A stretch of 25,651 nucleotides of DNA from a virus. Its lineage: Duplodnaviria > Heunggongvirae > Uroviricota > Caudoviricetes. Where the stretch lies: the IMG/VR virus record IMGVR_UViG_3300048090_000069, positions 1 through 25,651 of that record; one strand, given 5' to 3'. The notes under the pieces were generated by a model, which had not been told where the DNA came from, did not search any database, and worked only from the letters and a program-made list of their open reading frames with translations. A program made the position numbers and the translations under genes. Shown here piece after piece: positions 2,851 to 12,618 of the stretch; position 1 is the first letter of the stretch, and every line of letters begins with the position of its first letter.

Positions 2851-3510
2851 TTATTTCCAGCGGGATACTAAATTAATAACCGTCTGAGAATACCACAAAC
2901 CGCCTCTAGCTGTCGTAGTCCCTCCTGCATTCAACTCCGAAGCTATCGCTTTGAAGCTCATTTTGTCCCTCACCATACGTTCGATAGTGGGGCGAAGCTT
3001 GTCAGCAAACCTATCAGCTTTTGCTTTGATATTTTTTACAGCAATGTTACGAGCTTCTGGGAGATTGGTGCGATTACCTAAAACTACACCACGAGCTTTG
3101 GCAGCAGCTAACCCTGCCTTAGTCCTCTCTCCAATCATTTTCCTTTCTTTTTCAGCAAGCCCTGCATAAATATGCTCTACGAAGCTGTCAGCTTGTTCTC
3201 CGAGCGCAACAGAAATTACAACCTTTTTCTTCTGCATCAGGTTGTGAATAACGGCGGCATCCCTACTAATCCTGTCCACTTTAGACACTACAATCTTGCA
3301 TTTCATCTTACGGGCAAGAGATAGGGCAGACTGCAATACAGGTCTATCTTGCACAGAGAGAGAGCCAGAAGTGATTTCTTCAATCATGGAGACAATTGTA
3401 TATCCGTTCTGAGAGGCCCATACTTCAATCTCTTTTCGTTGGGCCTCTAACCCGTTCCTGCTCTCCCCTTGTTCCTCTGTGGAAACACGGCACAACCCAA
3501 TGATGTTCAT
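2851..3510 (-). CDS. serine recombinase (resolvase/invertase family) with C-terminal DNA-binding region
   Basis: N-terminal RVSTEEQ (catalytic Ser10), DRPVL, SKVDRISR motifs; C-terminal IASELNAGGTTTARGGLWYSQTV; AGGAG RBS. Confidence 0.92.
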   Translation of the reverse strand: MNIIGLCRVSTEEQGESRNGLEAQRKEIEVWASQNGYTIVSMIEEITSGSLSVQDRPVLQSALSLARKMKCKIVVSKVDRISRDAAVIHNLMQKKKVVISVALGEQADSFVEHIYAGLAEKERKMIGERTKAGLAAAKARGVVLGNRTNLPEARNIAVKNIKAKADRFADKLRPTIERMVRDKMSFKAIASELNAGGTTTARGGLWYSQTVINLVSRWK

Positions 3511-5122: not shown

Positions 5123-5322
5123 CACACCCTCTCTTCAACATTATAGAAATAGAAAGAGTCGTTGTTTTTGTTCTTCCTTGTAACAACGCCAAATTTTCCT
5201 TCGTAGAGTAGCACAGCACCTTTCTCGCTTGCTTTGTGGTGAGGGATTGCGTTCATGAAAGCTGCAAGCAACAATTCTTCATCAACTACATCAGATTTAT
5301 TTACAATAATAATTTTCTTCAT
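5122..5322 (-). CDS. hypothetical protein
   Basis: GGAGGAG RBS; ATGA overlap with the HD gene stop. Confidence 0.75.
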   Translation of the reverse strand: MKKIIIVNKSDVVDEELLLAAFMNAIPHHKASEKGAVLLYEGKFGVVTRKNKNNDSFYFYNVEERV

Positions 5323-5840
5323 TTAATCACTCCTCCAAGTTCATCAAACCTCTTCAAAAACTGTTCATAAGCTTTCTTGTGTCCCCAAGGAACCACCTTA
5401 AAAGGTGCTCTCTCAAAGTTGTATCCTCGCACAGAACAATTAGGCTGTAAGTCAATTCGCTCGCTCACAAACATACGCATGTCAGCTTTCTTGATTTCTG
5501 GATGCATGGGAAACTGCAAGCCATATTTTTTGAAAATAGAAGCTTCTACACTCTGTTCCAGTTTCTTGTAGTCTGCAAGCAGTTGCTTGAGAGGAGAGGA
5601 AACATCTCCAAGGAAGGCTTCTCCAGCATCGTGCATAAGAGCTTCCATAGCATATTCCTCTGGAACAAGCAGAGAGACATATACACAATGTTGTGCAATG
5701 CTGTAAGGCTTCTCAAGAGAACCTGTAAATCTACTGAGATTGGAGAGGTTCAGTGCAATATCCTTTACAGTGTAGTTGCTGCTATCTGGTTCTGTAAAGC
5801 AGAAGTTGCCCCCGCTGTAGAGAGAGATTTCAGGTTTCAT
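5319..5840 (-). CDS. HD-domain phosphohydrolase (YfbR/YfdR-like 5'-deoxynucleotidase family)
   Basis: RFTG...YSIAQH...ALMHDAGEAFLGDVSSPLK motifs; start revised to ATG 5840 (AAGGA RBS). Confidence 0.85.
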   Translation of the reverse strand: MKPEISLYSGGNFCFTEPDSSNYTVKDIALNLSNLSRFTGSLEKPYSIAQHCVYVSLLVPEEYAMEALMHDAGEAFLGDVSSPLKQLLADYKKLEQSVEASIFKKYGLQFPMHPEIKKADMRMFVSERIDLQPNCSVRGYNFERAPFKVVPWGHKKAYEQFLKRFDELGGVIK

Positions 5841-6126
5841 CTTTTTCCTTTGCCTCTTTGTATTCTGCACGCGCCTTGTGAATTTCTTCAAATTTCTCTT
5901 TGAATGCAGACAGTTCTTCAATCAGCTTAGTTAGTTTGTAAAAGCTGTTATTTTCCTCATCACCATATGGAGAGAAGTCTAGTGATACTTTACGGCTGCA
6001 ATCTGTAATACAGAAGGAAGCAGACATACCATAATCATGCCCATCGTCGTTATCCCAAGTAATATCGGCTTCAAAAGCAGCCATACCTTCAGCTTTATTC
6101 AGAAAATCACGCTTGTAATATTTCAT
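5830..6126 (-). CDS. hypothetical protein
   Basis: GGGAGA RBS; ATG 6126 overlaps the upstream TGA. Confidence 0.75.
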   Translation of the reverse strand: MKYYKRDFLNKAEGMAAFEADITWDNDDGHDYGMSASFCITDCSRKVSLDFSPYGDEENNSFYKLTKLIEELSAFKEKFEEIHKARAEYKEAKEKDET

Positions 6127-6671
6127 TGTTGTTTCTCCCATTTTTTGATAGCATCTTCCAAGCTAATAGGTGTAAAGCTTGTTTGTTCTACAGAGACACA
6201 GAGATAACGCGGGTGATGTCTTGTTTTAAGAATAGCTCCCTCTTGGAATGTGTGCAAAACACTATGAGCGTGCAAATGCCCATGGAAATTCCCCTTCCAA
6301 CGCTCTAAGCTTTGTGGATGAATAGGAATGTGTGTTAGTACATATCCTGCCAGTTCACCACTGCCCCGTACATCCTTGAAATACGGAGTGTACTCTTCCA
6401 GCCGGAATACGTCATGATTACCTTTAATCAGAATCTTTGTACCATTCAGGCGTGCCAGAGTAGGCAGAGCACGACGATTGATTACAACATCTCCTAGATG
6501 ATACACCTTGTCCTGTGGACGTACAACTTTATTCCAATTCTCAATAAGGGCTTCATCCATTTCTTCGATAGTGTCCCAAGGGCGAAGTTTATCAACCCCA
6601 TTAGGAGCAAGAAACTTTGTCACTCCTACATGACCAAAATGTGTATCACTTGTCAAAAAGATATTACTCAC
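6123..6671 (-). CDS. calcineurin-like metallophosphoesterase
   Basis: DTHFGH, LGDV, GNHD, THIP, HGHLH motif series. Confidence 0.92.
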   Translation of the reverse strand: MSNIFLTSDTHFGHVGVTKFLAPNGVDKLRPWDTIEEMDEALIENWNKVVRPQDKVYHLGDVVINRRALPTLARLNGTKILIKGNHDVFRLEEYTPYFKDVRGSGELAGYVLTHIPIHPQSLERWKGNFHGHLHAHSVLHTFQEGAILKTRHHPRYLCVSVEQTSFTPISLEDAIKKWEKQQ

Positions 6672-6909
6672 GTTTATATTTCTCCATAATCTTGTTCCAT
6701 TTGTCTTTGGTTTCTTGCAATTGCTCCCATGTCATTCCCCAAGGTGCCCACAGATAAGAGTGATCCATACTACCACCACAACTCTTACACTTTGCTTCGT
6801 ATAAGTGGAAACCCTTTCCTCCGTCTGCCCTGTTGTGGAATCCACAATGTCTACAAGGGTCTGTCTTAGCTCTTTCTTCGTTTGCTATTTGTAGAGGGTG
6901 TTTCTTCAT
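6664..6909 (-). CDS. small Zn-ribbon protein, Lar (restriction alleviation)-like pattern
   Basis: PCRHCG ... CKSCG ... KWNK; AAGGA RBS. Confidence 0.5.
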   Translation of the reverse strand: MKKHPLQIANEERAKTDPCRHCGFHNRADGGKGFHLYEAKCKSCGGSMDHSYLWAPWGMTWEQLQETKDKWNKIMEKYKRE

Positions 6910-7352
6910 CAAACTTCCTTCTCATTCCAATATGCTACCCATTGTTCCCACTGTTTGTAAATAACTTCTTCCCCAACAGAGAAAATTCCACGCTCTTTGT
7001 CACGCCTTACAGCCTCTTGGAAACTGACAGGAAATTCTACAATTTCTACATTGTAGCCCATAGACACACAATCTGCAATCAATTTGTTACGAAGCTTTGG
7101 ATTCAAGTTGGTGTTAGAGAAAATAACATCCTCTCCCCGCTTTGCACACTCTACAAGCAGATGATCAGCAATATCACTCACTTCCTTCTCCACTTTACTA
7201 GAGAACTTGTAGGCATTCTCTCCCTTCCAGCCAAGCTTACCTGTCACTTCCCAACGAAGTTTGTCACGATTGATTTCATAGAAATCCTCTTGTTTCTCAC
7301 TCCAAGTAGATTTACCAGAAGCAGATACACCTACAGTAATTACGCATTTCAT
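6909..7352 (-). CDS. stand-alone 5' polynucleotide kinase (T4 Pnk kinase-domain-like P-loop)
   Basis: GVSASGKST Walker A, INRDKLR, SNTNL, EAVRRDKERG motifs; no phosphatase domain; start revised to 7352 (AAAGGA RBS). Confidence 0.88.
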   Translation of the reverse strand: MKCVITVGVSASGKSTWSEKQEDFYEINRDKLRWEVTGKLGWKGENAYKFSSKVEKEVSDIADHLLVECAKRGEDVIFSNTNLNPKLRNKLIADCVSMGYNVEIVEFPVSFQEAVRRDKERGIFSVGEEVIYKQWEQWVAYWNEKEV

Positions 7353-7363
7353 TTGTAGTCCTT

Positions 7364-8653
7364 TCATTCAGAAATTGCTTCCAAATCTTCCATATCTGCT
7401 GCCTCTGCAAGACCTTCCATGCACCTGAAGAAGTAAGCCTTCGATTTCAGGAAATACGGATTTTGTTTCCCCGTATCTACACGAACAATAATACCTTCCC
7501 CCGGATGAGATGGATCAAGATAGTCTGCACCAAGTACATCAGGACGTTCAGTGAGTGCTTCTACCTTTGCCAGCAACTTATCCAAATCCCCATCATAAAT
7601 TTCAGATTCAGCAACATGCAGAGGGGCATTCAATCCACGTTCTTCACACCACTGTTGAATCTGTGCAGGAGACATATCAATGTTCTTCCCGTCTTGTGTC
7701 AATTGAGTGATGCGATAAACAAAGAAATAATTTTCATGTTCTGCACAGTTATACTTATAAACAATGTTCTCTCCATATTTCTTCTGGAAAGCTTTGTCTT
7801 TGGTTGATTTGCCAGAGTGGGTTGCCATAATAGGCTTACCATTCGCATAGCCAGCAATCTCCCCGTAAATGGTCATACCCTCAGTCATAAAGGGTTTCAG
7901 CATTTCCATAACATCAAAGCGGAATTGCTCACTGCCGTGAAAACCCTCTTTACCTTCTGTCAGGATGACATTACGAGTACCTACAATGTGCTTCCATTCC
8001 TCTTGTTTGAAGAATGGATAAACTTTATTTACAATCTGCTTCCATTTCGGCAGAGTGTGTACCACTTTAGTCAGGCCAGAACGATGAGAAGTACCATGAA
8101 TCTTAGCTGTGAAAGACAGCATAGCACCTACAGGAATCATAGCTGCATTGTGCTTAAATTGAGCACTGTCTACGTGTTTCTCAAAGTATGGCAAATCAAT
8201 CAGACGTTTCTTTTTCTTCGGTTGACGTTCCAGAGCTTCACGAGTGGCTTTAGAGATGTATTTCTGGCAGATTTGTTTGCCATTTACAGTGTCAAAGCTA
8301 TATCCAATGTCACTCACTTCATTGTAATTACCTACGTAAGACAGGCTTTCAAGAGAAGTGAAATAAGCCTGAGACTTCACCTTCAGAAATGGTTGCACAC
8401 GTACACGACGATTCTCTTCAAAGAAGCCAGTTTTGGTGTTGTCTTTGTTGTTCAGTGCTTGACGGAACAGGTTGTTCTCACGGCAGTATTCTTCAGACAG
8501 TTGAGTATCAGCAGGGAACAGGATACCCACATAACCCACACCAACATCCTTGCTCACAATGCAATTTTCACCAAGTACAACAGCCACATGAATCTTGTCT
8601 GCGCCCGGAATCTCCTGTACAGACGTTACCTTTGCTACGATAGCTTTAGACAT
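7364..8653 (-). CDS. ATP-dependent RNA ligase (Rnl2-related, DRB0094-like with N-terminal module)
   Basis: motif I KIHGTS, IYGEIAG, FFVYRI, GEGIIVR, FLKSK; N-terminal IPGADKI module; AGGAGG RBS. Confidence 0.88.
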   Translation of the reverse strand: MSKAIVAKVTSVQEIPGADKIHVAVVLGENCIVSKDVGVGYVGILFPADTQLSEEYCRENNLFRQALNNKDNTKTGFFEENRRVRVQPFLKVKSQAYFTSLESLSYVGNYNEVSDIGYSFDTVNGKQICQKYISKATREALERQPKKKKRLIDLPYFEKHVDSAQFKHNAAMIPVGAMLSFTAKIHGTSHRSGLTKVVHTLPKWKQIVNKVYPFFKQEEWKHIVGTRNVILTEGKEGFHGSEQFRFDVMEMLKPFMTEGMTIYGEIAGYANGKPIMATHSGKSTKDKAFQKKYGENIVYKYNCAEHENYFFVYRITQLTQDGKNIDMSPAQIQQWCEERGLNAPLHVAESEIYDGDLDKLLAKVEALTERPDVLGADYLDPSHPGEGIIVRVDTGKQNPYFLKSKAYFFRCMEGLAEAADMEDLEAISE

Positions 8654-8683
8654 CTTTTCCTCCTAGAATTAGTCAATGAAGCT

Positions 8684-8712
8684 ACTTTAGCACAACATCC
8701 TACAAAGTGCAA
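8684..8712 (-). promoter_or_regulatory. sigma70 promoter of the RNA-repair operon
   Basis: TTGCAC-17 bp-TAAAGT with extended TG. Confidence 0.75.
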
Positions 8713-8716
8713 GCAC

Positions 8717-8751
8717 AAAAAAAAAAGCCCCACACATCTCTGTGCAGGGCT
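8717..8751 (-). terminator. intrinsic terminator of the phoH-protease operon
   Basis: AGCCCTGCACA-GAGA-TGTGTGGGGCT followed by a long T run. Confidence 0.92.
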
Positions 8752-8755
8752 GTTG

Positions 8756-9448
8756 TCATTCTTCTTTTCCAATGTCTTTCAGGAGGTCAATAACCTCCGC
8801 AGCGGTAGGAGGCTTCTCCCTCTTCTTACGGGCAGGTTTCTTAGCTTTTTCCTCTACAGGCTGTTCTTCTTCTTGTTTCTGTAGCTTCTCTGCACGAACC
8901 TTCAAACGCTCATACACTTCTTCAGGAGTGAGCCAGATTTCTTGTCCGTTGAACACACGTTCAAACTCAGGCTCTGTCAGGAAATCACTGTAGACATCTC
9001 TTGCCAAACCCTTTATACTCTTTACATAGTGGGTTGTAGAGGCTTCCATGTTTCCAGAGTGACCACCATAGCCCCAAGAGGCTGTATGAATCATGAAGGA
9101 AAGATGCTTGTTCATTGTTACCATGTGAGCTTTAAGAACAATGAATGTTGCAGCAGAAGCAACATCACTATCTACGTGTACGTGTACAAAAGCTTCTGTG
9201 TTCTCCAGTGCAGAGATTAGAGGGATGACAGAGGCAACACTACCACCGGGAGAAGTGAGTCTAATTTGTACTAAATCGTTCTCTGTTGCTTGCTCTAGAA
9301 TGTTTACAAGTTGGGAAAACTGAGATACATGGACAAATTCTTCATCAATGTCCACTTCGTAACGTTGTGCGACAGGGGTAGATGCCACTTCAAAAGGTTT
9401 GGGGTCTTGCTGGAACAACTTCATAATATCTTGCTTTGGTCTGTTCAT
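8756..9448 (-). CDS. ClpP-like (S14 family) serine protease
   Basis: LTSPGGSV, VASAATFI (catalytic Ser), FMIHTASWG (His), EIWLTPEE. Confidence 0.85.
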   Translation of the reverse strand: MNRPKQDIMKLFQQDPKPFEVASTPVAQRYEVDIDEEFVHVSQFSQLVNILEQATENDLVQIRLTSPGGSVASVIPLISALENTEAFVHVHVDSDVASAATFIVLKAHMVTMNKHLSFMIHTASWGYGGHSGNMEASTTHYVKSIKGLARDVYSDFLTEPEFERVFNGQEIWLTPEEVYERLKVRAEKLQKQEEEQPVEEKAKKPARKKREKPPTAAEVIDLLKDIGKEE

Positions 9449-9458
9449 AGTTGCTCCT

Positions 9459-10241
9459 TCAGTTGTGATGATACATTTTCACAAAGCTCTTGCACAAACC
9501 AGAACGAACAACGTCTTGCATGGTGTAGTTCACCACTCCAATATTGCTTTCTAATTCATCCAAATCTTCATCTGTCATGTATTCAGGTTCATCGTTGATG
9601 GTTTTTACAATCAAATCTACAGTTTTCATGAGTCCACTGTTGAACTTCAAATCTGTTTGTTTTTGATCCCCTGTGAAGATGATTTGGCAATTATCTCCTA
9701 TACGGGAAAGGGTCATTTCTAGTTCATCTTCTGTGAGATTTTGGCTTTCTTCACAAATTACAATGGCATTAGAGATACTAAGACCACGAAGGTGTTCCAT
9801 GGATTGCATACGGACAATACCTTTATCCAGAGCATATTTCATGAAACCTTTACCCATAAAGAAAGAAAGATGGGAAAGTGTTTGTGTGAAGAAAACTGCT
9901 AATTTTTCTTCTAGGGTGCCGGGTAGCATACCAAGGGATTTTCCTGCGGAGACATTTGGACGAAGCAGAATGATTTGTTCTACTTGTTTCTTTCTAAGTT
10001 GTTCAGCAGCATGGTAAGCTGCCAAGAAACTTTTCCCACTACCTGCTGCACCAATAGCAAAGATGACTTTTCTTCCTTCTTGCTGGTATTTCAACTGCAT
10101 AGCTTGATTTTTTGTTTGTGCTGTTAGTTTCTGTGCTACTGTTTGTGAGGGAACAACTTCCTGAAACTTCTCTTTGTGTACAGGAGGAAGTTCTTGTTCG
10201 ATTTTCTTTTTACGGGTATGTCGTGCTGCTTGTCTGGACAT
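9459..10241 (-). CDS. phoH: PhoH-family ATPase
   Basis: GAAGSGKS, IILLRP, GMLPGTLEEK, MEHLRG, EESQN, FTGDQKQTD, VVRSGL motifs. Confidence 0.95.
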   Translation of the reverse strand: MSRQAARHTRKKKIEQELPPVHKEKFQEVVPSQTVAQKLTAQTKNQAMQLKYQQEGRKVIFAIGAAGSGKSFLAAYHAAEQLRKKQVEQIILLRPNVSAGKSLGMLPGTLEEKLAVFFTQTLSHLSFFMGKGFMKYALDKGIVRMQSMEHLRGLSISNAIVICEESQNLTEDELEMTLSRIGDNCQIIFTGDQKQTDLKFNSGLMKTVDLIVKTINDEPEYMTDEDLDELESNIGVVNYTMQDVVRSGLCKSFVKMYHHN

Positions 10242-10982: not shown

Positions 10983-11468
10983 ATGGAAGAAGAGAAAGAT
11001 ACAAGCACAGAAATAGTGGTTGTAGAGGAGTCAACAAACGTTGTAAAAAGAGGCCCGTACAAGAAAACTAGGAAAGCTAACACATTCCTAAAACCTAAAG
11101 GGCATGACTTAGACAAGGCAATCAAACAATCTGGACGATATCTACAAACAGCTTTGGAGACTCTTGTACACATCTCTGTAGACAAAAACGCTGCTGACAA
11201 GGATCGTAGGATGGCGGCTGAAGCTATTCTAACCCTACACACAAAAATGGTTGATCAAAGAGACAAGGATGAAATTATCCGTCTAGAGAAGGAAGTAGTG
11301 TTGCTGAAGCTTGTAGGTGCGGGAACTACTACACCAGAGGGTGAAGAAGAGGAAGAAGAGGATGACACCCCTATTGTAGATTTTGACAATGTGCATGAAG
11401 ATTTTCGGGATCAACCTGTGATTGATGTGCAGATGACAGAACAAATAGTTGACAAAGAAGAAGATTGA
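10983..11468 (+). CDS. putative terminase small subunit
   Basis: GGAGG RBS, ATG 10983; helical core with acidic tail; last sizeable non-nuclease gene before terL. Function inferred from position only. Confidence 0.5.
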   Translation: MEEEKDTSTEIVVVEESTNVVKRGPYKKTRKANTFLKPKGHDLDKAIKQSGRYLQTALETLVHISVDKNAADKDRRMAAEAILTLHTKMVDQRDKDEIIRLEKEVVLLKLVGAGTTTPEGEEEEEEDDTPIVDFDNVHEDFRDQPVIDVQMTEQIVDKEED

Positions 11469-11486
11469 GTATACAATACACATATT

Positions 11487-11510
11487 GAAGCTTCCAAAGA
11501 GGCTTCTTTC
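11487..11510 (+). terminator. terminator-like hairpin after the putative terS
   Basis: GAAGCTTC-CAAA-GAGGCTTC followed by TTTC. Confidence 0.45.
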
Positions 11511-11593
11511 CTGAATCTTCTCCTAAAACGGGCTACGTCCCCTCCTACGGAAGCACGAAGAGGTTGTAGAGGATTCTTCAGGAAAGAATAAAT

Positions 11594-11678
11594 GGGCTTA
11601 TGGTGGAATAGCTAGACACGCCGGATTTAGGTTCCGGTGCAGAAATGCGTCCGAGTTGGAGTCTCGGTAAGCCTACCA
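11594..11678 (+). tRNA. tRNA-Leu(UAG), C19-G56 variant
   Basis: GGGCTTA/TAAGCCT acceptor, CCGGA-TT TAG GT-TCCGG, long variable arm, T-loop TTGGAGT, encoded CCA. Confidence 0.93.
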
Positions 11679-11686
11679 AAATAAAA

Positions 11687-12160
11687 ATGATTCAATGTAT
11701 GAAAAGAAAATACAATAAGATAACTGATGAAGAATTAACTATTGCAGTAGAGAATAGTGAGTCAATAGCAGGAGTACTTAGATACTTAGGAATTAGAGAG
11801 ACAGGTGGCTCTCACAGTCACTATAGCAGAAGGATTAAAAAACTAGGTCTAGATACACAACATTTCACAGGTCAATTGTGGAATAAAGGTAAGAAATTTT
11901 CAAAGAAAAAATTTAGTGAAATCTTAATTAAAAGAGACTGTGGGTTAAGACAGAAAGGTAGTGTATTGACTAGGTGTTTAATTGAGATTGGTAGAAAACA
12001 CGAATGTGAAAAGTGTTCTCAAATCCCTGTGTGGCACGATTTTCCATTAACTTTAGATGTAGATCATATTAATGAAGATTGGTTAGACGATAGGGAGGAA
12101 AATCTAAGATTTCTTTGTCCAAATTGCCATAGTCAGCTATCCAGAGGATTATTAAATTAG
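11687..12160 (+). CDS. HNH endonuclease inserted in the tRNA cluster
   Basis: CEKC...LDVDHIN...NLRFLCPNCHSQ; track start (11645) lies inside tRNA-Leu, so the start is ATG 11687 or 11699. Confidence 0.88.
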   Translation: MIQCMKRKYNKITDEELTIAVENSESIAGVLRYLGIRETGGSHSHYSRRIKKLGLDTQHFTGQLWNKGKKFSKKKFSEILIKRDCGLRQKGSVLTRCLIEIGRKHECEKCSQIPVWHDFPLTLDVDHINEDWLDDREENLRFLCPNCHSQLSRGLLN

Positions 12161-12245
12161 GGGCGAGTGGTGGAACTGCGATACACTCGTGACTTAAAAT
12201 CACGCGCCGAAAGGATTGAGGGTTGGAATCCCTCCTCGCCCACCA
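12161..12245 (+). tRNA. tRNA-Leu(UAA), C19-G56 variant
   Basis: GGGCGAG/CTCGCCC acceptor, CGTGA-CT TAA AA-TCACG, T-loop TTGGAAT, CCA. Confidence 0.93.
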
Positions 12246-12246
12246 A

Positions 12247-12322
12247 GCTACTTTAGCTCAGTTGCTAGAGCGCTTCACTTGTAATGAAGATGTCAGGGGT
12301 TGGAATCCTCTAAGTAGCACCA
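12247..12322 (+). tRNA. tRNA-Thr(UGU), C19-G56 variant
   Basis: 76 nt; GCTACTT/AAGTAGC acceptor, CTTCA-CT TGT AA-TGAAG, D-loop AGTTGCTA, T-loop TTGGAAT, CCA. Confidence 0.94.
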
Positions 12323-12327
12323 AACAT

Positions 12328-12402
12328 TGTCTAGTAGCTCAATGGTAGAGCAAGTGACTGTTAATCACTAGGTTATTGGTTCGATGCCAGTCTAGACAGC
12401 CA
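12328..12402 (+). tRNA. tRNA-Asn(GUU)
   Basis: TGTCTAG/CTAGACA acceptor, AGTGA-CT GTT AA-TCACT, canonical GG and TTCG, G73, CCA. Confidence 0.93.
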
Positions 12403-12408
12403 AACAAC

Positions 12409-12484
12409 GCGGGTATAACTCAGTAGGTAGAGTGTCAGCCTTCCAAGCTGTTCGTCGCAGGTTCGATTCCTGTTGCCCGCTCCA
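12409..12484 (+). tRNA. tRNA-Gly(UCC)
   Basis: GCGGGTA/TGCCCGC acceptor, CT TCC AA loop, canonical GG and TTCG, U73, CCA. Confidence 0.94.
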
Positions 12485-12618
12485 AAATCGCCCTTAGAGG
12501 TCAGTAGCACAGAAATGGAAAGACGTTTCCTGAAGTCTTCGGAGGGCAAACCTCTGTGGTGTTATCTTCGCGGATACATCTGTCAAGTTTGACACGGAGC
12601 ATCAAACAAAGGAGAACT

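Follow-up and report, generated by a model that had tools for sequence, protein, structure and literature searches.

Transfer RNAs with an inverted 19:56 elbow pair in an uncultured phage

Reviews treat the tertiary base pair between G19 of the D-loop and C56 of the T-loop as an invariant of transfer RNA (tRNA), and the elbow surface to which it belongs serves as a recognition site for many enzymes, RNase P and T-boxes as well as for the ribosome (PMC4810234, PMC7912444). Here we describe three tRNA genes in which this pair is inverted to C19-G56. They lie in the first 25,651 nucleotides (hereafter the window) of the genome of an uncultured Caudoviricetes phage, IMG/VR record IMGVR_UViG_3300048090_000069, and specify tRNA-Leu(UAG), tRNA-Leu(UAA) and tRNA-Thr(UGU). 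Each gene carries both of the substitutions that an inversion requires and is otherwise intact. A survey of viral tRNAs reveals that positions 19 and 56 covary and that re-coded elbow pairs cluster in particular phage genomes, and we propose, with about even confidence, that the change in base identity was itself favored by selection. Among open-access papers and preprints we found none that describes natural C19-G56 phage tRNAs, or the covariation and clustering reported here, and the suspicion in the original prediction for this DNA that such tRNAs are undescribed therefore appears to be justified.

Results

Three intact tRNA genes carry an inverted elbow pair

Direct reading of the bases established C19 and G56 in all three genes at the positions given in Table 1, and confirmed the original prediction that these six substitutions are real, mutually compensatory and carried by intact genes. 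In each tRNA, C19 directly follows G18, and G56 is the third base of a 7-nt T-loop that reads TTGGAGT in tRNA-Leu(UAG) and TTGGAAT in both tRNA-Leu(UAA) and tRNA-Thr(UGU). Elongator tRNAs characteristically combine G18G19 with U55C56, whereas the bases here are C19 and G56, such that the tertiary pair is inverted and its complementarity is retained. The rest of the core is canonical in all three (U8, A14, G18, U54-A58, R57, G53-C61 and a 15-48 pair). Acceptor stems of 7 bp are followed by A73 and an encoded CCA, and ARAGORN reports a complete cloverleaf with a 7-nt anticodon loop containing U33, a 5-bp T-stem and U55. The neighboring Asn and Gly tRNAs keep GG in the D-loop and TTC in the T-loop, as predicted, and the same is true of a tRNA-Met encoded elsewhere in the genome.

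All five tRNAs of the window match the Rfam model RF00005 at full length with 46.6-67 bits (gathering score 29), and the matches of the three inverted tRNAs, which span model positions 1-71, all exceed that gathering score. It had been anticipated that such tRNAs might be under-called by tRNA finders, but ARAGORN and Infernal call all three readily. Bacterial ThrRS uses G1-C72, C2-G71 and the anticodon bases G35 and U36 as its identity set, and tRNA-Thr(UGU), with G1-C72, C2-G71 and anticodon UGU, appears to carry all of these elements. The features that govern acceptance by LeuRS are A73, A14, A15-U48, a long variable arm and intact D/T-loop tertiary pairs (PMC9976931, PMC6614811); both Leu genes have A73, A14, A15 with U48, A20a and the long variable arm. 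Because the genes combine scores of 46-66 bits, intact stems and identity elements, an encoded CCA and a near-consensus promoter, we have fair confidence that they would fold and work as ordinary elongator tRNAs. Their codons are frequently used by the phage, in which 42% of the Thr codons are ACA and 35% of the Leu codons are either UUA or UUG.

A second assembly, IMG/VR UViG_3300046513_000108 (90,390 bp, TerL 95% identical), contains all three tRNA sequences unchanged, and a third contig (TerL 84%) starts within the Thr gene and carries TTGGAAT in the 3' half of that gene. The identity of the sequences in an independent assembly excludes sequencing error. Features typical of tRNA pseudogenes, such as broken stems, uncompensated loss of invariant bases and a lack of conservation, are absent. 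Given a background of 2/1036 C19-G56 tRNAs among unselected viral tRNAs, the probability of encountering three or more among six by chance is approximately 1e-7.

Positions 19 and 56 covary in viral tRNAs

We assembled approximately 2,100 non-redundant viral tRNAs, as called by ARAGORN, from several hundred IMG/VR loci, and scored the base at position 56 in each T-loop together with the G18-N19 dinucleotide in each D-loop. Among 1,504 non-redundant tRNAs that were not selected for their elbow ('bystander' tRNAs), 1,429 have the canonical G19-C56 pair, 21 (~1.4%) have A19-U56, three (~0.2%) have C19-G56 and another three have U19-A56. Apparently unpaired 19:56 intermediates constitute about 2% of viral tRNAs.

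Several observations establish that the two positions change together. In the first 756 viral tRNAs, G56 occurs with a GC D-loop in 10 of 10 cases and with no other, and U56 occurs with GA in eight of nine. Throughout the survey, A56 goes with U19. Every tRNA-Leu with a C19 D-arm has G56 (27/27), and not one of these 27 carries an uncompensated C19. Where this Leu-type D-arm carries A19 instead, U56 is present in 27 of 30 tRNAs (called as 26 tRNA-Leu, two tRNA-His and two tRNA-Gln), and class-I tRNAs with A19 have U56 in at least 109 of 118 cases. Pairing between positions 19 and 56 is therefore required in phage tRNAs, and its identity can change. Such changes are not specific to C-G, given that A19-U56 and U19-A56 are also found. 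Relative to C19-G56, A19-U56 is about 7 times as common overall and at least 15 times as common in tRNAs with a class-I D-arm.

The survey also yielded observations on the composition of the variant sets. A19-U56 is common in phage tRNA-Thr(UGU), which makes up 32 of the 88 non-redundant class-I tRNAs found with this pair (IMG/VR loci L347-L465), and it is seen repeatedly in phage tRNAs for Ala(UGC), Gly(UCC) and Ile(GAU). U34 is present in 65-67% of C19-G56 or A19-U56 tRNAs versus 46% of canonical viral tRNAs, and G34 in 6.5-16% versus 30%, although the mode of collection confounds both comparisons with isotype. A conserved tRNA-Leu-like sequence with a C19 D-arm, the T-loop TTGGATG and an atypical A/T-rich acceptor region is present at L268, L270, L284 and L301 and is not called by ARAGORN. 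Another tRNA-like gene of ~73 nt recurs in viral contigs and in one bacterial (Syntrophus) metagenome-assembled genome (MAG) (L011:2139-2211, L126:6416-6489 and L139); its D-loop contains GC, its T-loop is either TTGAAAT or TTGAAGT, the size of its anticodon loop is unusual, and ARAGORN labels it 'tRNA-?'.

Re-coded elbows cluster by genome and include an excess of C-G

Re-coded elbow pairs are not spread evenly among phage genomes. The phage under study has three among its six tRNAs, all C-G. The most extreme case that we encountered is an unrelated complete phage, G126 (IMG/VR UViG_3300043788_000060; loci L264 and L466-L471), whose genome of 110,256 bp and 50.7% G+C encodes 31 tRNAs. Thirteen of these have a Watson/Crick elbow pair other than G-C: eight are C-G, four are A-U and one is U-A. 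The tRNA cluster of G126 is located at ~28.7-34.8 kb, and two further T-loops in this phage begin with A (ATCGTTG and ATCGTCC). More generally, when a contig carries an inverted tRNA-Leu, its other tRNAs are C-G in 6/133 cases (4 when redundancy is removed) versus 2/1036 elsewhere (P 5e-5 and 2e-3, respectively), or 17-24 times the background.

The type of change is equally telling. A-U can be reached from G-C by way of a G-U wobble pair, whereas C-G requires two transversions that pass through a mismatch. Among tRNAs with a class-I D-arm, at least 109 A-U pairs stand against at most seven C-G pairs, whereas the Leu D-arm type has 27 A-U and 29 C-G pairs (Fisher P 2e-11). C19-G56 is thus at least 17-fold enriched relative to A19-U56 in the Leu type. 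The changes depart from what mutation alone would be expected to produce, and C-G predominates in the two phages that are richest in re-coding.

We also built a tree of tRNA-Leu sequences from which the D-arm and position 56 had been removed. The inverted sequences are scattered among canonical ones, with 21 changes between states compared to 21.6 when the labels are shuffled, and the well-supported branches force at least five changes in this weakly resolved tree of 67 columns. A single origin of inverted tRNA-Leu followed by spread through transfer was rejected, given that the label is unclustered on this weak, 67-column tree.

C19-G56 is very rare in bacteria

To find class-I tRNAs with C19, we scanned for a D-arm pattern in which H is required at position 17, which keeps out canonical NGGC D-loops. 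Across 185,579 bacterial species genomes, this pattern combined with G56 matches nine stretches, all from MAGs, of which seven (in six genomes) are tRNAs or tRNA-like. Among these are housekeeping-looking genes: a Thr(UGU) gene within a Thr-Tyr-Gly-Thr cluster that is present in a Fibrobacter MAG and in one other MAG, and a Gly(UCC) gene within a Pro-Gly-Arg-His cluster from Firmicutes. Their presence in such clusters indicates that the C19-G56 pair is compatible with ordinary translation. There is no conservation at the level of clades, with one occurrence in 121 Fibrobacterota genomes. Inverted tRNA-Leu of the type searched for is found in 0 of 401 Pseudomonadota genomes, which carry ~3.4 canonical copies per genome (~1,400 genes sampled).

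The same class-I pattern gives seven matches in the viral collection, which is much smaller than the bacterial set. As a rough estimate, with uncertain denominators, viral tRNAs carry the inversion at least ten times as often as bacterial tRNAs do. The survey of 185,579 species genomes, which covers one type of D-arm, and that of the 401 Pseudomonadota genomes support the expectation that C19-G56 would prove very rare in bacteria.

One bacterial contig departs more widely from convention. A Chloroflexales MAG contig of 2,491 bp (L135; JAAXUL010001275.1) holds a dense array of 17 tRNA genes, two of which are Arg tRNAs with C19-G56. Many T-loops in the array read TGCGAAT, TGCAATT, GGCAGAT or ATCGTAC, and there are D-loops without GG (e.g. 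AGCCAGCA), suggesting that the 18:55 contact has also been rewritten, and perhaps 54:58 as well.

Canonical homologs of all three genes exist in other phages

Each of the inverted genes has close homologs that are canonical. Klebsiella T4-like phages (Jiaodavirus and relatives, e.g. KSKp and Roth01) carry a Leu(UAA)-Thr(UGU) tandem that is 82-85% identical to that of the window, with the same gene order, 1-nt spacing and encoded CCA, identical D-stems, an identical Thr anticodon arm and a Leu variable arm and T-stems that match almost base for base. In contrast to the window, both Klebsiella genes have G19 and C56, and their acceptor stems differ. Stenotrophomonas phage RAS14 encodes a canonical tRNA-Leu(UAG) that is 82.5% identical to the window copy, and Erwinia phage Hena1 encodes a similar one; the T-loop is TTCGAGT in both, compared to TTGGAGT in the window phage. 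No inverted elbow is seen in the nearest cultured homologs, with RAS14, Hena1, Serratia phage Kamaji, Pseudomonas phage ZC03 and Proteus phage Stubb all canonical. The elbow of tRNA-Arg(UCU) in phages phiEco32, SU7 and EP335 likewise proved canonical. The Thr anticodon arm of the window is shared by more than 118 IMG/VR stretches; of 115 tRNAs examined, none has G56 and five have A19-U56. When this anticodon arm and G56 are both demanded, the scan returns only a sibling of the window phage.

Since canonical homologs exist in other phages for all three genes, the inverted state is derived, a departure from canonical ancestors, and arose in the window lineage. The simplest account is three separate double substitutions in that lineage. 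Relatives of the phage were recovered at five IMG/VR loci and three loci from a metagenome scan, none of them informative at intermediate divergence.

Two of these relatives have odd genes of 86-92 nt, called as tRNA-Thr(UGU), upstream of the terminase gene (L005:7410-7495, TerL 77%; L007:5675-5766, TerL 66%). Their variable regions are long and their D-loops are unlike those of any standard tRNA. The L005 copy has the T-loop TTAAAAT and GT in the D-loop, and might possess a U19-A56 pair.

The tRNA cluster and its surroundings

The source genome is a single contig of 89,651 bp with 41% G+C, of which the window is the first 25.6 kb. Its TerL protein has just 39% identity to those of Pseudomonas PAK_P1-like myophages, and the phage is therefore uncultured and far from any named phage. 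ARAGORN locates five tRNA genes on the + strand directly 5' of the terminase gene and a sixth, for tRNA-Met, elsewhere in the genome (Table 1). The promoter-like sequence upstream, which matches the consensus, would drive expression of the cluster. The HNH endonuclease gene lies exactly between the two tRNA-Leu genes; its listed open reading frame (11645-12160) begins inside a tRNA, and the in-frame ATG at 11687 is the likelier start. Non-coding, hairpin-rich stretches of ~115-125 nt flank the cluster on both sides (11478-11593 and 12485-12610) and may be processing or leader structures, and the relative L005 has a non-coding stretch in a like place, upstream of its tRNAs.

On the opposite strand, 3-6 kb from the tRNAs, is a row of RNA ligase, kinase and hydrolase genes. 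The gene row at 5319-10241 resembles an RNA-repair set, which suggests that tRNA damage may matter to this phage. A serine recombinase gene (2851-3510, - strand; Resolvase domain, E 2e-26) is also present and would be unusual for a lytic-looking 90-kb myophage.

Table 1. Positions of tRNA genes and neighboring features in the window and, for tRNA-Met, in the whole genome.
Feature	Position	Strand	Details
HD/YfbR-like hydrolase	5319-5921	-	PF12917, E 2.9e-5, below family cut-off
AAA_33 P-loop kinase	6909-7367	-	PF13671, E 7e-17
RNA ligase	7364-8653	-	PF09414 RNA_ligase, E 1.1e-7
ClpP-like protease	8756-9448	-	
PhoH-like ATPase	9459-10241	-	Adjoins RNA ligase/kinase/hydrolase genes
Sigma-70-like promoter (TTGACA, 17 nt, TACAAT)	11449..11477	+	11/12 consensus matches; ~116 nt upstream of first tRNA
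tRNA-Leu(UAG), class II, encoded CCA, A73	11594..11678	+	C19 at 11612, G56 at 11658; RF00005 46.6 bits
HNH endonuclease gene	11687..12160	+	PF01844 HNH, E 3.7e-5
tRNA-Leu(UAA), class II, encoded CCA, A73	12161..12245	+	C19 at 12179, G56 at 12225; RF00005 48.7 bits
tRNA-Thr(UGU), class I, encoded CCA	12247..12322	+	C19 at 12265, G56 at 12302; RF00005 66.3 bits
tRNA-Asn(GUU), canonical G19-C56, internal comparator	12328..12402	+	RF00005 67 bits
tRNA-Gly(UCC), canonical G19-C56, internal comparator	12409..12484	+	RF00005 65.3 bits
tRNA-Met, canonical GG and TTC	complement 47271-47347 of genome	-	ARAGORN

Discussion

Re-coding of the tertiary pair G19-C56 as C19-G56 took two compensating transversions in each gene. 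Inversion leaves the pair able to form, and the remaining lattice that joins D-loop to T-loop is intact (G18, U55, U54-A58, R57 and G53-C61). We infer that the L-shape is kept, together with the flat face on which the ribosome, RNase P and similar readers stack. Most partners of the elbow stack on this flat face (PMC4810234), and they should be served equally well by the inverted pair. The altered chemical identity of the two bases would matter only to readers that touch the bases themselves, of which TruB, TruA and the C-terminal domain of LeuRS, described below, are examples. We propose that selection favored this change of identity in the window phage lineage, rather than pure drift, and we consider the chances that this is correct to be evenly balanced. 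The proposal is founded on the clustering of re-coded elbows by genome, on the excess of the hardest mutational path and on the enrichment that is specific to tRNA-Leu. The tRNAs would probably benefit by escaping a factor that reads specific bases in the elbow or T-loop, or by being discriminated by it. Candidates for this reader are a host nuclease or toxin that targets tRNAs, an enzyme of tRNA modification and, where the two Leu tRNAs are concerned, LeuRS.

Several findings weigh against selection on base identity. First, the inversion is shallow within its clade, and farther relatives (TerL 66-77% identical) have different tRNAs. Second, only half of the tRNAs of the window phage are inverted. 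The pair therefore cannot be a general phage-versus-host label, and the original suggestion of an elbow-based self/non-self mark is excluded in that general form by the three canonical tRNAs among six. Third, phage tRNAs include all four Watson/Crick pairs, as would also be expected if the identity of the pair were only loosely constrained, and the C19-G56 pairs in housekeeping-looking bacterial clusters indicate that the inversion can be near-neutral. Fourth, we found no protein common to the window phage and G126 in an all-against-all blastp comparison (E 1e-4), and the association of re-coded tRNAs with RNA ligase (PF09414) is not significant, whether among all records (8/27 with re-coded tRNAs versus 5/25 controls) or among complete ones (6/8 versus 1/6, P 0.10). 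Fifth, replacement by alanine of the glutamine in Mycobacterium tuberculosis LeuRS that is equivalent to the G19-contacting residue has no effect (PMC3561953), on account of which LeuRS may not read the G19 base. Finally, the survey denominators are rough, the pattern-scan counts are those among the matches listed, and the loops are as assigned by ARAGORN.

The alternative that survives best is near-neutral compensatory drift, which we regard as possible but doubtful. According to this explanation, the identity of the 19:56 pair is under loose constraint, pairing is kept and the inversion as such is without function. The tRNAs of phages overlap in part with those of the host, encode CCA and are short-lived, which would relax the constraint on identity, and tRNA genes long resident in phages would gather several double substitutions that occasionally become fixed. 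Drift would account for the presence of all four Watson/Crick combinations in viral tRNAs along with ~2% of apparently unpaired intermediates, for a commonest variant, A19-U56, that is wobble-reachable (21/1504 versus 3/1504 for C-G), for sporadic C19-G56 in housekeeping-looking bacterial tRNAs that is unconserved at clade level, for the restoration of function by engineered swaps, and for the lack of any associated gene by RNA ligase co-occurrence or by blastp between the window phage and G126. It does not sit easily with the observation that three of three changes here, and eight of 13 in G126, are of the mutationally hardest type, or with the finding that C-G equals A-U in tRNA-Leu only (P 2e-11). 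The lack of any uncompensated C19 among 27 tRNA-Leu points to strong selection on pairing, which makes repeated neutral crossing of a mismatch valley unlikely. Moreover, apart from its inversion the Thr tRNA is highly canonical (66 bits), and we saw no bacterial clade with many re-coded elbows, such that a permissive host fails to explain the clustering.

Selection on base identity could also take a more specific form, in which re-coding is a counter-measure in a conflict over tRNAs. A host or phage factor that recognizes the bases of G19-C56, or C56 itself, would cut, modify or sequester particular tRNAs, a supposition that we consider unlikely. It is likewise rather unlikely, by our assessment, that phages respond by inverting the pair to C19-G56, or by changing it to A-U, in the affected isoacceptors. 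Such a conflict would explain why some phages have sets of re-coded tRNAs (3/6 and 13/31) and bacteria almost none. As a special case of the selection that we favor, and one whose probability we put at the same low level, the inverted tRNAs might resist a host nuclease or toxin directed at the elbow or T-loop, or might be spared by a tRNA-destroying enzyme of the phage. Phage tRNAs reportedly evade anticodon nucleases, as in the case of T5 tRNA-Lys and PARIS, mycobacteriophage tRNAs with altered anticodon loops are likewise reported to evade a nuclease, and Burkholderia reportedly has a CdiA toxin that cleaves the T-loop. Re-coding of some isoacceptors per genome is what would be expected of a nuclease aimed at particular tRNAs, the RNA ligase and kinase genes nearby suggest that tRNA damage matters, and re-coded elbows cluster by genome. 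Set against these points, we found no described defense system that reads G19-C56 among open-access papers and preprints, canonical tRNAs coexist in the same phages, the window phage and G126 have no common protein by blastp, and the association with RNA ligase is not significant.

A further explanation, improbable in our estimation, is that the inversion tunes the interaction of phage tRNAs with translation partners. In tRNA-Leu, an altered docking of the C-terminal domain of LeuRS would change the rate of charging or editing, or competition with host tRNA-Leu; in a more general form, which shares the same low probability, the inversion would prevent or alter modification of the T- and D-loops (Psi55, m5U54 or Gm18). 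TrmA binding to the T-arm is known to disrupt D-loop/T-loop pairs as well. TruB, which flips out bases 55-57, makes contact with two of them, 56 and 57 (PMC8051267), and TruA docks on the G19:C56 pair of the elbow (PMC12710931). In bacterial LeuRS, G19:C56 is contacted by the C-terminal domain, with a conserved glutamine hydrogen-bonded to G19 in the Thermus thermophilus complex (PMC3561953, PMC6614811). The identity of Escherichia coli tRNA-Leu depends on D/T-loop tertiary pairs (PMC3561953, PMC6614811, PMC9976931), and in vitro selection of this tRNA retained G18G19 (PMC9976931). The special position of tRNA-Leu in our survey, with its enrichment of C19-G56 relative to A19-U56, fits a role for LeuRS. 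Tuning by LeuRS is at odds with the inverted Thr tRNA of the window and with the inverted Arg, Cys, Gln, Trp, Val and Gly tRNAs found elsewhere, as well as with the dispensability of the G19-contacting glutamine side chain.

Decaying pseudogenes or artefacts of assembly or sequencing, an explanation that has two off-consensus positions in its favor and nothing further, can be dismissed as exceedingly improbable, as the original prediction held, in view of identical sequences across independent assemblies, perfect compensation in three genes, intact stems and identity elements with high covariance-model scores, and the same covariation in dozens of unrelated viral contigs.

The existence of natural, apparently functional inverted tRNAs shows that cells constrain the identity of the elbow pair and not its geometry, and that phages sometimes escape from this constraint. 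The perfect covariation, the clustering by genome and the special position of tRNA-Leu offer handles for finding a base-specific reader that enforces G19-C56. Should the driver be a tRNA-targeting defense system or toxin, these tRNAs would reveal a new axis of conflict between phages and their hosts, and if it is drift they would constitute a clean natural experiment on the constraints that act on tertiary pairs. In practice, annotation and structure-based tRNA filters should not count C19/G56 as a defect.

The inverted tRNAs can be set beside several known systems. With canonical elongator tRNAs (RF00005) they share the cloverleaf, 7-nt loops, U8-A14, G18-U55, U54-A58, G53-C61 and R57, and differ in that the 19:56 pair is C-G rather than the near-invariant G-C. 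Like the nuclease-evading tRNAs reported for T5 and for mycobacteriophages, they depart from host tRNAs at conserved positions; those tRNAs are said to be changed in the anticodon stem-loop, with resistance shown by experiment, whereas the change described here is in the elbow and is known from sequence. A19-U56 phage tRNAs provide a closer parallel, because the same tertiary pair is re-coded with compensation and the variants cluster in some phage genomes, although A19-U56 is reached by way of a G-U wobble and is the weaker pair. The Streptomyces bldA tRNA-Leu(UAA), which lacks G19, resembles the phage Leu tRNAs in being natural and functional with a non-standard 19:56 contact, but its pair is missing rather than inverted, and the tRNA is cellular and regulatory (PMC6614811). 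Finally, in engineered mitochondrial tRNA-Ser(UGA), either C19:G56 or A19:U56 restores the charging activity that is lost in a G19C mutant, such that its synthetase needs the integrity of the pair and not its identity (PMC10412605). Those swaps are laboratory mutants, whereas the phage swap is natural and recurrent.

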